A DNA stretch of 64,000 nucleotides from the NCBI RefSeq assembly GCF_000027125.1, contig NC_017626.1. One strand, written 5' to 3'. Source of the DNA: Escherichia coli 042 (lineage in GTDB: Bacteria > Pseudomonadota > Gammaproteobacteria > Enterobacterales > Enterobacteriaceae). Within the stretch, counting starts at the first letter, position 1, and each line of letters begins with the position of its first letter. A model generated the notes under the pieces. It searched no databases. It was not told where the DNA came from and saw only the letters and a list, made by a program, of their open reading frames with translations. Positions 18,806 to 24,951 of the stretch are shown here, one piece after another. The translations under genes were made by a program, and so were the position numbers.

Positions 18806-20995
18806 TTAATCAGCTAATGGCTGCGGGCGACCAATCAAATACCCTTGCAGATATTGCACCCCGAGCTTATGCAATAGCGCCTGCTGCTGTTGCGTCTCGA
18901 CAAACTCCGCGACCACACTCAATGACTTCGCTTTCGCCAGATCGGTAATTGATCTCACAATCATCGCATCCAGCGTATTCGTGACGATATCTTTCACAAA
19001 GACGCCATCAATTTTGATGATATCAGCCTGCAAACGCTTTAACCGTTCGTAGTTGGCATAACCGGTGCCAAAGTCATCAATCGCAATCCGGAAACCAAAC
19101 TTATGCAGTTGCTCGATGTTGTACATGCTGCTTTCTGCGTTAGAAAACGCCTGCTCCTCGGTGATCTCAAGAATGACCGCCTGCGGGGAGATGTTATAAC
19201 GCTTAAACAGACGAATAATCCGCCCGGCAATATTCTTTTGCAGCAGCGTGAGCGGCATTAAATTGACTGAAAAGCGCGGGCCTTTTTTGTCGCAAGGATG
19301 TGTTGCCAGCCACTTCAACAGGGATTCCAGCACTTGCAAATCAAAACGCGCGCTAAGGTTAAACTGAGCAATAAGGGGCAGAAACTTATCCGGGGTCATA
19401 ATGCCACCGTCATATTTCAGTCGCGCGAGGATCTCATCATAACCTTCACCCTCTTTGTTGCGAATTGGCTGGGCGTAGAGCAGCAAATCACCCTGATCTA
19501 ACGCCGTGCGAATGGTATTCAGCAATAGCACCTGTTTAGTGGTCTGCCCGGAAACCATCTCCTCTCTGCTATCCAGCGCCAGCACATGGTGATGTGCGCA
19601 GGATTGCTCCGCCAGCCAGCTTAACTGCCCCAACAAGGGTTGCAGGGTTTCCTGATTTCCATCAAAACGCCCCCAGGCAGCACCATAGCCCATATCCAGC
19701 CCGGTATTGTTCCAGTGAATTTGCCGACTATTCAGGATGTTAACCATATGCTGGAGTCGCCCTTCCGTTTCCGGCCCACTCAGCACTAACAGCAGTTCAC
19801 TACCCGGCAATTGATACAACTTTTCATTTTCCTGCATCAACGGCAGCAGCGTACGGTAAATTGATCGGATACAGTGAACGCGCATCATTAAGCCGTAATG
19901 ACGACTCATAAACTCAAGATTATCAATGCGCAGGCAGCAAAAACTCTTGCCCGCCTCTTGCTCCGGCGCTTGTTCTAACGCACGAAAGTTGGGTAGGAGC
20001 GTTAACGGATCGGTCAGCGCCTGCAAATGCCAGCGGCGATTAAGCCATTCACTGCGATGATAAATGCGCACCATATAGAGCAGGCAAACGCTAAAGGAAA
20101 TCAGCACCGCGAGAATAAATGCCAGCGAATATTCGGTTTCCACCCCTTGCAAAAAGTTCTGGTTGTAATTCAGAAGGCAAAGCGTTGAAACAGCCCAGGT
20201 GAGATTTAAAAACGGATAGCGGAGCTTACCGACCCCGAGGGTAAAGATAATGAAGAAAACGGGCACCAGGTAACCGGCAATAAAGTCATTTTCATACGGT
20301 GTGCACAGCAGAAGTAGCAGCACGCTTAACGCTGCCAGCCAGCTTAAGGTAAATGCGCGTTTCTCTTTGCCCAACGACGGAGCGATATCCCTGCGCCACA
20401 ATATCTGCGCAAAGTGGGGACTTACAATCATGCGAGTGAGATAGTAGAAAAGCATGTTGTAAATCAGCACAGCGGTGAAAAGGCTTAGCAAATCAACGAC
20501 CGTGAAAATGGCATCCGCATCGCCGAAAAAGGTGGATATCTTTAGCGGGAAATCAAAGAAGCTCCCCACAAGATACATGCTGCATTTGATGCCGATCGGC
20601 GTCACCAAACCAAGCCAGAACAGACGTTGCCAGACATATCGGCTGGTCAATCCATAACGCCAACGCGTCCCCAGCTGCCAGCGTAATATTGCGCAGGCAC
20701 ACAACACGACAAACGTCTGGCTGCCGAGCATGACCGCAGTCTGTAAAAAAGAGAGATGAAAGTTCCACAGATTGGTGCAAAACATCCCGCATAAAACGGG
20801 AACGACACCGCGCCAGCCAAAGATAAACAAGATTGACAGCATTACGCACAGTGGCATCCACGCCAGAAAGATATAACTGGAATGGATAATGGCAAGTGGC
20901 GAAATAAAACGGGATAGCTGAATAAGTACCACGGTGAGCGTAAACGCTAGTGTGAATATCTTGATATTTTTTATCAGGTTATGCTCCACAAACAT
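18806..20995 (-). CDS. pdeA: c-di-GMP phosphodiesterase (MASE1, GGDEF-like and EAL domains)
   Basis: ORF 18806..21055; start trimmed to ATG 20995 (MFVEHNLIKN...) giving 729 aa; recognised as YfeA/PdeA. Confidence 0.85.
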   Translation of the reverse strand: MFVEHNLIKNIKIFTLAFTLTVVLIQLSRFISPLAIIHSSYIFLAWMPLCVMLSILFIFGWRGVVPVLCGMFCTNLWNFHLSFLQTAVMLGSQTFVVLCACAILRWQLGTRWRYGLTSRYVWQRLFWLGLVTPIGIKCSMYLVGSFFDFPLKISTFFGDADAIFTVVDLLSLFTAVLIYNMLFYYLTRMIVSPHFAQILWRRDIAPSLGKEKRAFTLSWLAALSVLLLLLCTPYENDFIAGYLVPVFFIIFTLGVGKLRYPFLNLTWAVSTLCLLNYNQNFLQGVETEYSLAFILAVLISFSVCLLYMVRIYHRSEWLNRRWHLQALTDPLTLLPNFRALEQAPEQEAGKSFCCLRIDNLEFMSRHYGLMMRVHCIRSIYRTLLPLMQENEKLYQLPGSELLLVLSGPETEGRLQHMVNILNSRQIHWNNTGLDMGYGAAWGRFDGNQETLQPLLGQLSWLAEQSCAHHHVLALDSREEMVSGQTTKQVLLLNTIRTALDQGDLLLYAQPIRNKEGEGYDEILARLKYDGGIMTPDKFLPLIAQFNLSARFDLQVLESLLKWLATHPCDKKGPRFSVNLMPLTLLQKNIAGRIIRLFKRYNISPQAVILEITEEQAFSNAESSMYNIEQLHKFGFRIAIDDFGTGYANYERLKRLQADIIKIDGVFVKDIVTNTLDAMIVRSITDLAKAKSLSVVAEFVETQQQQALLHKLGVQYLQGYLIGRPQPLAD

Positions 20996-21165
20996 GAGTA
21001 CACTACTCTCACTGATCGGGGTTTTCAGGCACACAAATAATAAGTTTATTCGCATCGCGAAGCAAACAGGGGCCAGCCTGTTGCCGATTTTTCATCCAAT
21101 GATGCTTTCACCAGGCGGCACTAACCCGGACGTAGACTGTATTACAAAAGCGGCAAAAAGCAGAG

Positions 21166-21194
21166 ACAAAAAACCCCCGCTTTGCAGCGAGGGT
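21166..21194 (-). terminator. probable terminator of the alaW-alaX tRNA operon
   Basis: GC hairpin (cccccgc / gcgaggg, one mismatch) followed on the minus strand by a U6 tract, 9 nt past the tRNA 3-prime end. Confidence 0.5.
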
Positions 21195-21202
21195 TGGAAA
21201 TT

Positions 21203-21278
<76 letters not shown>

Positions 21279-21317
21279 ACGATGCGTTTACGTACCAAAT
21301 TTGCTGGGTGCAAAATT

Positions 21318-21393
<76 letters not shown>

Positions 21394-21425
21394 GTCACGT
21401 AAAGCTTGTCGAGTTGACGGGCGGC

Positions 21426-21454
21426 ATCATATGAATTCCGCCCGAATGTGTCAA
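21426..21454 (-). promoter_or_regulatory. sigma70 promoter of the alaW-alaX operon
   Basis: minus strand reads TTGACA-17 bp-TATGAT followed by GC-rich discriminator GCCGCCC, about 30 nt upstream of alaW. Confidence 0.55.
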
Positions 21455-21628
21455 CGGCAAAATGCAGCGTGTAGTTTCAATCGCTGAAAAATCAGGCAAA
21501 TGAACAATTTTGGAAAACCGCTCGCATTCAGTAGTTATTCATGTCACGGTTTCCTGTAAAGTGGTGTTATAAAATGAACTACTAATAGACCCACATACAT
21601 TCAGGGAATTGTTATGTTCAAGGAGAGG

Positions 21629-21973
21629 ATGACACCAGATGAACTTGCCAGATTGACCGGCTATAGCCGCCAGACCATCAATAAATGGGTACGCAAGGAA
21701 GGCTGGACAACGTCACCAAAACCAGGCGTCCAGGGTGGCAAAGCCCGACTGGTTCACGTCAATGAACAGGTTCGTGAATATATTCGCAATGCTGAACGTC
21801 CAGAAGGTCAGGGAGAAGCGCCTGCCCTGTCTGGTGATGCGCCGCTTGAAGTGTTGCTGGTGACACTGGCGAAAGAGATGACGCCAGTTGAACAAAAACA
21901 GTTTACATCCTTGCTTCTGCGGGAAGGGATTATCGGATTGTTACAACGCTTAGGGATTCGCGATAGCAAATAA
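21629..21973 (+). CDS. yfeC: small putative DNA-binding protein (YfeC/YfeD family)
   Basis: ORF 21614..21973; start moved to ATG 21629 (MTPDELARL...), which has the AGGAG SD; 114 aa. Confidence 0.75.
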   Translation: MTPDELARLTGYSRQTINKWVRKEGWTTSPKPGVQGGKARLVHVNEQVREYIRNAERPEGQGEAPALSGDAPLEVLLVTLAKEMTPVEQKQFTSLLLREGIIGLLQRLGIRDSK

Positions 21974-21974
21974 T

Positions 21975-22367
21975 ATGAAAAGATTACGCAATAAAATGAC
22001 CACCGAAGAACTGGCTGAATGCCTCGGTGTGGCTAAACAAACTGTTAACCGTTGGATCAGAGAAAAAGGCTGGAAAACGGAAAAATTTCCTGGCGTGAAA
22101 GGCGGTCGTGCCAGACTTATTCTGGTCGATACGCAAGTTTGTGAGTTTATTCAGAACACGCCAGCCTTCCATAACACGCCGATGCTTCTGGAAGCCGAAG
22201 AACCCCTTGCCGAATACGCACCGGGTATTCGCACCCCTGCTTATCGGCAAATCATCAGCGCAATAGACAACATGACTCATAGCGAGCAGGAAAAAGTTGC
22301 GCAATTTTTGTCACGCGAAGGAATTCGTCATTTCCTTGCTCGTCTCGACATAGATGAATCAGCATAA
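21975..22367 (+). CDS. yfeD: small putative DNA-binding protein, paralog of yfeC
   Basis: 130-aa ORF; aligns along its length with YfeC (MTTEELAECLGVAKQTVNRWIREKGW... versus MTPDELARLTGYSRQTINKWVRKEGW...). Confidence 0.8.
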   Translation: MKRLRNKMTTEELAECLGVAKQTVNRWIREKGWKTEKFPGVKGGRARLILVDTQVCEFIQNTPAFHNTPMLLEAEEPLAEYAPGIRTPAYRQIISAIDNMTHSEQEKVAQFLSREGIRHFLARLDIDESA

Positions 22368-22370
22368 ATT

Positions 22371-22409
22371 AAAAACGGCAGGGGTATCTCTCCTGCCGTT
22401 TATCTTTTT
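22371..22409. terminator. bidirectional terminator between yfeD and gltX
   Basis: aaaaa-acggcagg-ggtatctct-cctgccgt-ttatcttttt. Confidence 0.7.
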
Positions 22410-22418
22410 ACACGCTAA

Positions 22419-23834
22419 TTACTGCTGGTTTTCGCGTTCAGCAATAAAAGCCAGCGCTTTGTTGATACGCTCGATACTGCGGGTCTTACCGATTGCGTGA
22501 ACAGTAACATCCAGCGCCGGAGACTGCCCCGCACCGGTTACGGCGACACGCAGCGGCATACCAACTTTACCCATACCCACTTCCAGCTCATCCGCCGTCG
22601 CCTGAATAGCGTGATGAACGTTTTCAGCGGTCCAGTCAGTAATCGCAGTCAGTTTGTCACGAACCACTTCCAGCGGCTGACGCGCTACTGGGCGCAGATG
22701 TTTTTTCGCGGCGTCGGCATCGAACTCAGCAAAATCTTCGTAGAAATAGCGGCAGCTCTGTGCCATCTCTTTCAGCGTCTTGCAGCGTTCACCCAGCAGT
22801 TTCACTAGATCAGCCAGCTGCGGGCCGTTACGGGTATCGATATTTTCCTGCTCAATGTGCCACTGTAAGTGAGTAGCAACATACTCCGGCGGCAGCGCGT
22901 TAATGTAGTGATGGTTCAGCCACAGCAGCTTGTCGGTGTTGAACGCACTGGCAGATTTGCTGACGGCATTCAGAGTGAAGTATTTGATCATCTCTTCACG
23001 AGTGAAGATTTCCTGATCGCCGTGGGACCAGCCCAGACGCACCAGATAGTTCAGCAGTGCTTCTGGCAGATAACCGTCATCACGATACTGCATTACGCTG
23101 ACCGCCCCGTGACGTTTGGACAGTTTTTTACCGTCATCGCCGTTGATCATAGAAACGTGTGCGTAAACCGGTACCGGCGCTTTCAGAGCCTTAAGAATGT
23201 TGATCTGGCGCGGTGTGTTGTTGATATGGTCTTCGCCACGGATAACGTGGGTGATTTCCATATCCCAGTCATCGACAACCACACAGAAGTTATAGGTTGG
23301 GGAACCATCGGTACGGCGAATGATCAGATCATCCAGTTCCTGGTTGCTGAACTCGATCGGACCACGGATCTGATCGTCAAAAACAACAGAACCTTCCTGC
23401 GGGTTAGCAAAACGTACAACGCACGGTTCATCATCAGCATGATGATCATGGCTGTGGCGGCAGCGACCGTCATAACGCGGCTTCTCACCTTTCGCCATTT
23501 GCTCTTCGCGCAGCGCTTCCAGGCGCTCTTTAGAACAATAGCATTTATAAGCTGTGCCCTCTTCCAGCATCTGATCGATCACCGCGTTGTAGCGATCAAA
23601 ACGTTTGGTCTGGTAGTACGGACCTTCATCCCACTCCAGGCTCAGCCAGTTCATGCCATCCATAATGGCTTCGATAGCTTCCGGCGTGGAACGCTCAAGA
23701 TCGGTGTCTTCAATACGCAGCACGAACTCACCGCCGTGGTTACGTGCAAAAAGCCAGGAGTAAAGAGCAGTACGCGCGCCGCCAACGTGCAGATAGCCTG
23801 TTGGGCTTGGCGCGAAGCGAGTTTTGATTTTCAT
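22419..23834 (-). CDS. gltX: glutamyl-tRNA synthetase
   Basis: 471-aa ORF recognised as GltX. Confidence 0.95.
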
Positions 23835-24609: not shown

Positions 24610-24951
24610 ATGGCCACTATCTCTCCAACTTCAATTCCTTCCATACAAACACAGAGTAGTAACAGGGCATCAGAAGGTAGCGATGTTGCTTCACAAATTG
24701 CGCGGATAAGTCAGCAAATCATCAAACTCACTCAACAAATTAAAGAGATTGCAGACACTAGCGGCAGTGCTGAAGACAAGCAAAAACAGGCCGAATTGAT
24801 TCAGCAGCAAATCACCCTACTGGAAACACAACTGGCGCAGTTGCAAAGACAGCAGGCAGAAAAAGCGCAGGAGAAAGAGCAGCGTTTGTCTCTGAATGCA
24901 TCCCTTCCAAATCCTGTTGAAAAAACGACTCAGATCGATATCTATATCTGA
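24610..24951 (+). CDS. orphan Q/E-rich coiled-coil protein, possibly FlxA-like (113 aa)
   Basis: ORF with GAGGA SD 7 nt upstream; Ser/Thr-rich N-terminus, heptad-like Q/L/I repeats, C-terminal QIDIYI; FlxA-like call is from memory only. Confidence 0.5.

Follow-up and report, generated by a model that had tools for sequence, protein, structure and literature searches.

In Escherichia coli K-12, the neighbouring genes b2398 and b2399 are annotated as “DNA-binding transcriptional dual regulator YfeC” and “putative DNA-binding transcriptional regulator YfeD”, respectively. A study of both tagged proteins by chromatin immunoprecipitation with exonuclease treatment (ChIP-exo) lists 50 entries for YfeC and 43 for YfeD (Gao et al. 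2021, PMC8464067), and reports TTC-rich inverted repeats as the YfeC motif, 205 altered genes in the yfeC knockout, altered expression of 40% of the YfeC-bound genes in that knockout, and 20 direct YfeC targets (16 repressed; including rpmH, rpmB, rpsU, lpp, grxC, panD and chaB). According to the same paper, an earlier study linked yfeC deletion to altered production of extracellular DNA. A yfeC mutant of a K1 strain poorly colonises the small intestine of neonatal rats and shows reduced lethality, and in enterohaemorrhagic E. coli a yfeC deletion leaves LEE1 expression unaffected. Here we describe the corresponding gene pair in a 64,000-nucleotide stretch of E. coli 042 (contig NC_017626.1; hereafter the window), for which an original prediction, made from the letters alone, had proposed a duplicated pair of small DNA-binding regulators with unknown targets. 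The pair of regulators is borne out by family membership, by the predicted fold and by the published binding in vivo; the targets are not unknown, given that sites of both YfeC and YfeD have been mapped by ChIP-exo and that RefSeq names K-12 YfeC a dual regulator. The genes lie as follows.

21614–21973, plus strand: yfeC coding sequence, 119 residues from the ATG at 21614 (open reading frame list, sequence, RefSeq annotation; PF07037 E = 3.6e-51)
21975–22367, plus strand: yfeD coding sequence, 130 residues, the fast-evolving downstream paralogue (open reading frame list, RefSeq annotation; PF07037 E = 6.8e-61)
21971–21977, plus strand: junction of the yfeC stop and the yfeD start, TAA-t-ATG, read from the sequence (a likely point of coupling)

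Our reading, to which we give a probability of roughly 0.8, is that yfeCD is a two-gene operon of small, paralogous, Enterobacteriaceae-restricted regulators of the PF07037 family, which descend from one tandem duplication, act as hairpin-paired dimers and have diverged in the sites they bind. The two plus-strand reading frames are indeed adjacent at the predicted coordinates, with the yfeC TAA at 21971–21973, a single T at 21974 and the yfeD ATG at 21975, giving a 1-nt spacer, and the peptides quoted in the prediction match the translations exactly. YfeC and YfeD align end to end as proposed, with 46 of 124 identities (37%) and E = 2e-26 in BLASTP, and the alignment spans both the N-terminal helix-turn-helix (HTH) region and a C-terminal REGI..L.RL motif; the similarity is far above chance. 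The hidden Markov model search for DUF1323 that had been suggested as a check finds both proteins in PF07037 (“YfeC-like”, the present name of DUF1323) over model positions 1–122 of 122, at 173 bits for YfeC and 204 bits for YfeD (gathering score 22.9 bits). Both proteins have the two-part architecture of an N-terminal HTH and a C-terminal REGI..L.RLGI in a 48-member family alignment and in AlphaFold2 (AF2) models. The window YfeC has the same sequence as K-12 YfeC (100% identity), and the window YfeD shares 93% identity with its K-12 counterpart; the neighbours and the full-length PF07037 match are likewise the same.

The family was very sparsely represented, with 211 of 1.84 billion clusters at 50% identity matching at E ≤ 1e-3, many of which are fragments or unrelated proteins with multiple HTH segments. 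As a separate observation, the YfeC/YfeD profile also matches proteins of about 280 to 2931 residues that carry 5–12 tandem copies of the HTH segment (P0175, P0179, P0182–P0185 and others).

The predicted structures divide each protein into two blocks joined by a disordered linker.

21629–21793, plus strand: YfeC N-terminal Mu-type winged HTH (predicted DNA-binding domain)
21845–21949, plus strand: YfeC C-terminal two-helix hairpin with ..EMTP.EQK..TSLLLREGI.GLLQRLGI conserved (AF2)
21993–22157, plus strand: YfeD N-terminal winged HTH (fused AF2 model, YfeD residues 7–61)
22236–22343, plus strand: YfeD C-terminal two-helix hairpin (fused AF2 helices 237–247 and 251–272, YfeD residues 88–123)

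The YfeC model, built on the 48-sequence family alignment with a mean predicted local distance difference test score (pLDDT) of 79, comprises helices 3–10 and 14–24, a β-hairpin (28–30, 40–42) and helix 46–54, a disordered linker at residues 59–67 with pLDDT below 50, and C-terminal helices 73–83 and 86–107, a block with pLDDT 81–94. In the family alignment, R98, G100, L105, R107 and L108 of this hairpin are near-invariant. YfeD was modelled in fusion with YfeC (YfeC-(GGGGS)6-YfeD, 28-row species-paired alignment); its N-terminal domain has, in fusion numbering, strands 156–158, 184–186 and 196–199 and helices 159–166, 170–180 and 202–210, and aligns column by column with the YfeC domain, and its hairpin keeps the motif as REGI..FL.RL. 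In single-sequence PDB searches, YfeD had no match and YfeC one marginal match to MuA (E = 0.013), so that a family profile was needed. The profile matches the MuA I-alpha domain (1TNS, E = 4e-5) and the Mu repressor (1G4D, E = 0.013), and hhalign of the YfeC-like family against the Mu domain gives a probability of 96.6% (E = 5.9e-10). The wing signature GW..(R/T)...GVKGGKA is common to the family and the Mu domains, and UniRef names YfeC-like orthologues “HTH Mu-type domain-containing protein”. By these profile comparisons, the N-terminal domain shares ancestry with MuA I-alpha and with the domain by which the Mu repressor binds DNA. Of the two findings that the prediction had named as telling against it, namely no significant alignment and no predicted DNA-binding fold, neither was obtained.

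The origin of the pair is best seen against its surroundings, which are as the prediction had placed them, between a pair of tRNA-Ala genes and gltX.

21203–21278 and 21318–21393, minus strand: two tRNA-Ala(GGC) genes, divergent from yfeCD
22419–23834, minus strand: gltX, convergent with yfeD

Named family members come from Escherichia, Citrobacter, Salmonella, Klebsiella, Enterobacter, Leclercia, Kosakonia, Kluyvera, Lelliottia, Atlantibacter, Cedecea, Cronobacter and Scandinavium, and, outside Enterobacteriaceae, from Chimaeribacter (Yersiniaceae). The order pdeA, yfeC-like, yfeD-like, gltX is found in all 35 loci of a species genome scan, as far as each contig reaches, and is identical in Cedecea and Cronobacter, so that the tandem pair is present in 37 of 37 Enterobacteriaceae loci examined. 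Chimaeribacter has one copy, adjoining gltX, which looks like the pre-duplication state. Because the single copy lies at gltX in Chimaeribacter and the tandem pair in all 37 Enterobacteriaceae loci, the distribution points to one old tandem duplication, and the predicted local duplication agrees with this history as well as with the paralogy and shared PF07037 membership. A neighbour-joining tree with the Chimaeribacter copy as its root places the upstream (YfeC) copies in a tight clade and the downstream (YfeD) copies on long branches; the downstream copies of Atlantibacter and Cedecea split off close to the base, possibly because of a slower rate or of gene conversion. Across the same genomes, identity to the E. 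coli proteins is 67–86% for YfeC orthologues and 35–73% for YfeD orthologues: the upstream copy evolves slowly and the downstream copy fast. Both genes are under purifying selection (ratio of nonsynonymous to synonymous substitution rates, dN/dS, 0.03–0.09). A 2012 paper used yfeD (DUF1323) as an example of the failure of bidirectional best hits between E. coli and Cronobacter. Among plasmid records there were 13 matches, mostly to chromosome-sized records or apparent chromosomal fragments.

Within E. coli, the 3′ part of yfeD exists in two forms. Compared with K-12, the window strain carries a non-K-12 haplotype of the yfeD 3′ half: identity drops to 80–87% over about 300 bp (window ~22114–22414, the yfeD 3′ part and terminator), against 96–100% elsewhere. 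In this patch, the synonymous rate dS is 1.5 with dN/dS 0.056, compared with dS values of 0.05 for the 5′ half, 0.06 for yfeC and 0.11 for gltX. The patch is bimodal among 5426 genome records, with 2240 matching the window allele at ≥95% identity, 3184 at 80–90% and 2 in between; there are therefore two deeply diverged yfeD 3′ haplotypes within E. coli. Because the K-12 allele is about equidistant (82–84%) from the window, Escherichia sp. (MOD1) and E. albertii alleles, the comparison suggests that the K-12-type patch was imported from a more divergent lineage. Independently of this, Escherichia sp. MOD1-EC7003 (L003:3889-3999) has an in-frame yfeC deletion between two ATGACNCC (Met-Thr-Pro) repeats, by which the entire winged-HTH domain is lost and a 36-residue C-terminal remnant is left, with yfeD intact.

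Signals for expression of the two genes lie in and around the locus as follows.

21543–21573, plus strand: putative yfeCD promoter, comprising the conserved block GTCACGGTTTC (21543–21553) and an extended -10 element TGtTATAAA (21565–21573)
21603–21607, plus strand: AGGGA resembling a Shine-Dalgarno sequence, 6 nt ahead of the 21614 ATG
22373–22401, no strand assigned: strong hairpin terminator between the convergent yfeD and gltX, with a 12-bp stem, 7 GC pairs and a T-run

The most conserved intergenic stretch in 16 genera, GTCACnnTTTC...TGCTATAAnATGAAC (window 21543–21579), is a probable extended -10 promoter; since a consensus scan called no sigma-70 site for yfeC, with a poor -35 region, it is conservation that carries this proposal. 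The same block also includes an additional conserved element beside the extended -10. As to the translation start, the K-12 annotation of yfeC uses the in-frame ATG at 21629, giving the 114 residues that UniProt also has, and the Prokaryotic Genome Annotation Pipeline (PGAP) start lies 15 nt upstream of it. The original prediction was right about the 130 residues of yfeD but assigned 114 residues to the frame opening at 21614, which encodes 119; the 114-residue form opens at 21629. Across the 16 genera, the 15 nt between the two ATGs remain in frame throughout, with synonymous changes at an Arg codon (AGG, CGG, CGA, AGA), GAG/GAA swaps at a Glu codon and a codon 2 that remains hydrophobic, and an AGGA/GGGA/GGAG element is kept 6–8 nt before the first start in 16 of 16 genera despite diverged flanks. 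The preserved frame, the synonymous Arg and Glu changes and the conserved Shine-Dalgarno element favour the 119-residue start (21614) over the 114-residue start (21629). An AAGGA ahead of the second ATG is invariant as well, which makes dual initiation possible.

The distance from the yfeC stop to the yfeD start ranges from a 4-nt overlap to 9 nt in 15 of the 16 genera, the sole exception being Cedecea with a 47-nt spacer and its own Shine-Dalgarno sequence. In E. coli, no Shine-Dalgarno sequence stands at a normal distance from the yfeD ATG. Given these short junctions and the lack of a usable yfeD ribosome-binding sequence, translational coupling of yfeD to yfeC is likely. The terminator lies 6 nt past the yfeD stop and 18 nt ahead of the gltX stop.

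These features suggest the following model. A single gene already beside gltX duplicated in tandem, once; the upstream copy, YfeC, retained the ancestral sequence, and the downstream copy, YfeD, diverged fast, mostly in the linker and the C-terminal part. In each protein, the Mu-type winged HTH would contact DNA; after it come a variable, disordered linker and a hydrophobic hairpin of two helices, presumably an oligomerisation module, that most likely pairs two chains. Paired YfeC or YfeD chains would bind short inverted repeats as a dimer, with YfeD now acting at chromosomal sites largely different from those of YfeC, and YfeC mostly repressing scattered genes. We take the paralogy, the family membership, the DNA-binding fold, the duplication history, the purifying selection and, from the published work, the binding to DNA in vivo as shown; pairing through the hairpin, translational coupling and the promoter are inferred.

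The published ChIP-exo coordinates were converted from NC_000913.2 to NC_000913.3 (+1978), a conversion supported by gene names that agree with the published table at twelve converted sites. The strongest YfeC peaks reach a signal-to-noise ratio of 2057 at chaB-chaC and 209 in mukF. Gibbs sampling on the 12 strongest YfeC peaks at widths 14, 18 and 22 yielded, at width 14, a peak-centred, palindrome-like core, TTCCGGAA or GGAAAnTTCC-like, with an information content of about 10 bits (for example TTTCGGAAACTTCCGGAAC in mukF and ATTCCGGAAACTTC in fdoG); the solutions at widths 18 and 22 were off-centre and of low value. The recovered core is compatible with binding as a dimer, though its information content is low.

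Several points weigh against our reading of yfeCD as a pair of dimeric regulators. The homodimer in PMC8464067 is a SWISS-MODEL inference. The published “yfeC” peak (2516052–2516085) maps to window 21192–21225, the 3′ end of alaX with its terminator, which lies some 350 bp ahead of the yfeC promoter and not at it; as alaX is a highly transcribed, duplicated tRNA gene, this peak may be real binding or an artefact. A search of the window for the TTCCGGAA core with at most 1 mismatch found no exact copy and none in the yfeC promoter, the one-mismatch matches numbering 37 against 26.7 expected, and because no TTCCGGAA-like site lies in the yfeC promoter, autoregulation by YfeC is not established. 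When yfeC is knocked out, yfeD mRNA rises 20-fold, which could come from derepression or from an effect of the deletion construct. Moreover, 40% of the YfeC peaks fall within genes, and several peaks recur for unrelated factors of the same multiplexed experiment (e.g., mdtL with YdhB); for both reasons, some YfeC/YfeD “targets” may be artefacts. Extracellular DNA release and K1 gut colonisation are phenotypes without a mechanism.

Dimers could in principle be mixed, a possibility already raised in the prediction; YfeC and YfeD would then act mainly as an obligate heterodimer, in which the hairpins pair mutually and the slightly different winged helices recognise asymmetric sites. The two genes lie side by side and are retained as a pair in every Enterobacteriaceae locus examined, their stop/start junctions favour synthesis that is coupled and co-localised, the REGI..L.RL hairpin motif is retained in both proteins, and the strongest YfeD ChIP-exo peak (3332954 in NC_000913.2 coordinates, signal-to-noise 57.6) coincides exactly with a YfeC peak. 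However, this is the only site in common among about 50 YfeC and 43 YfeD entries, and strains that differ at 9 linker or C-terminal residues of YfeD have 100% identical YfeC, an invariance that, for want of any compensatory change, counts against an obligate heterodimer. The fused AF2 model has a predicted template modelling score of 0.35 and a mean pLDDT of 67.6, with hairpin pLDDT lower than in the monomer model, although this is a weak test in that no inter-chain error was reported; the C-terminal 8xmyc tags of the ChIP study could themselves disturb YfeC/YfeD pairing. An obligate heterodimer thus finds little support, and we consider it unlikely.

A second alternative takes YfeC and YfeD as low-specificity DNA binders of the nucleoid-associated type, with ChIP peaks that define no regulon. 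The intragenic peaks and those recurring with unrelated factors fit such a picture, as do the roughly 10-bit motif and the scattered functional categories, in which the authors of PMC8464067 found no coherent pathway. The few very strong, sharp peaks at chaB-chaC and mukF, by contrast, have a central palindromic core in common, and 40% of the bound genes respond to the knockout, which makes low-specificity binding an unlikely account.

The one common site suggests a further, more speculative connection. It lies at 3334932–3334961 in NC_000913.3 (L043:633-662), at +24 to +53 of K-12 sfsB and hence within its first 60 nt, and SfsB/Nlp is clearly homologous to the Ner protein of phage Mu (PDB 1NEQ, E = 2e-22). 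A YfeC/YfeD site in the sfsB 5′ end echoes the Mu c repressor, which binds operators before ner. By this analogy, YfeC/YfeD and SfsB/Nlp might be what is left of a Mu-like immunity circuit after domestication, and the yfeD 3′ haplotypes could in addition be functionally distinct linker/hairpin variants; we regard this as a long shot.

That yfeC/yfeD are a Mu-like prophage remnant, immunity-repressor-type genes rather than host regulators, is highly improbable. The homology of the N-terminal domain to the Mu repressor and to the MuA enhancer-binding domain, as well as weak PHROG matches to phage DNA-binding, terminase-small-subunit and excisionase families, would fit an origin of this kind. Against it, tblastn found no YfeC/YfeD homologue among 50,697 phage records, no phage genes lie nearby, the order pdeA-tRNA-yfeCD-gltX is constant across genera, purifying selection acts on both genes, and no phage counterpart of the C-terminal hairpin exists, leaving at most an ancient domestication of the domain.

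Finally, the idea of a type II toxin–antitoxin module, for which RASTA-Bacteria ranked yfeD/yfeC as a high-confidence new pair in 2007 (quoted in a 2018 transposon-directed insertion-site sequencing paper, PMC5847654) and for which two small adjacent genes with a 1-nt spacer, an antitoxin-like HTH in the first and weak sub-threshold matches to the “YdaS_toxin” model might speak, is rejected as next to untenable, given that the two paralogues share one architecture and belong to a single DNA-binding family, that Pfam, NCBIfam and PADLOC yield no toxin domain above threshold (PADLOC matching only at the HTH level, to MADS1) and that the ancestral state is a lone gene without partner at the same locus in Chimaeribacter, and given also that the YdaS matches are confined to the HTH, that the core-genome position is fixed and not mobile, with no phage copies, and that yfeC single-gene knockouts are viable.

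Our reading of yfeCD as an operon of duplicated dimeric regulators therefore adds little by way of discovery: the description as duplicated small HTH regulators is correct and already in databases and the literature, the genes, paralogy, family and DNA binding having been catalogued and one ChIP-exo study published. It may be of use to annotators, for whom the “MerR family” and “toxin-antitoxin” labels are unsupported and the domain is Mu-type, the 119-residue YfeC start is favoured, and the published “yfeC” ChIP peak falls on alaX.

Window 21100–22500, used as a 1401-base query, is present in 5425 of 5426 complete E. coli genomes and is 100% identical to strain Ecol_316, in which RefSeq annotates both reading frames as yfeC and yfeD. 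An Rfam search of the window found six tRNAs and nothing else. On the far side of the tRNA-Ala genes, the mechanical reading frame of pdeA (yfeA; window 18806–21055) spans 749 residues from the ATG at 21055; as the RefSeq annotation has 729 residues, the true start is probably 60 nt further downstream. Beyond gltX, a FlxA-like reading frame of 113 residues (window 24610–24951) follows the valU-valX-valY-lysV tRNA cluster; at its position, K-12 has the xapR-xapB-xapA-yfeN block, and Cedecea and Cronobacter have an unannotated reading frame of similar size.

Compared with the Mu I-alpha and Mu c repressor domains (1TNS, 1G4D/1QPM), YfeC and YfeD are predicted to have the same winged-helix topology of helix, helix, β-hairpin wing and helix. 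However, YfeC scores 14.6 bits against PF02316 (HTH_Tnp_Mu_1; gathering threshold 23.3) and YfeD is not listed, and because of this sub-threshold score the relationship is one of remote homology, not of Pfam-family membership. Unlike the Mu proteins, YfeC and YfeD are without a transposase or repressor C-terminal region and have instead a family-specific linker and two-helix hairpin, and their genes are chromosomal, outside any phage. PGAP names YfeD a member of the MerR family, yet YfeC and YfeD score only 12.5–12.6 bits against MerR_1 (PF13411; cut-off 21.6), the YfeC model is without the long antiparallel coiled-coil helix that follows the wing in MerR proteins, having in its place the disordered linker and then a 35-residue hairpin, and Pfam and NCBIfam contain no effector domain match for either protein. 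As MerR_1 is below threshold and both the coiled-coil helix and an effector domain are missing, the label is valid at superfamily level only. Against the HTH_17 model, YfeD is above the cut-off of 27 bits (31.4) and YfeC below it (20.9), and both are under the TIGR01764 cut-off. No integrase or mobile element lies near yfeCD, the neighbours being pdeA, tRNA-Ala and gltX in every genome examined. Compared with the DNA-binding domains of excisionase/AlpA (HTH_17), BldC, RacA and pSK1 Par, YfeC and YfeD are set apart by their extra C-terminal domain.
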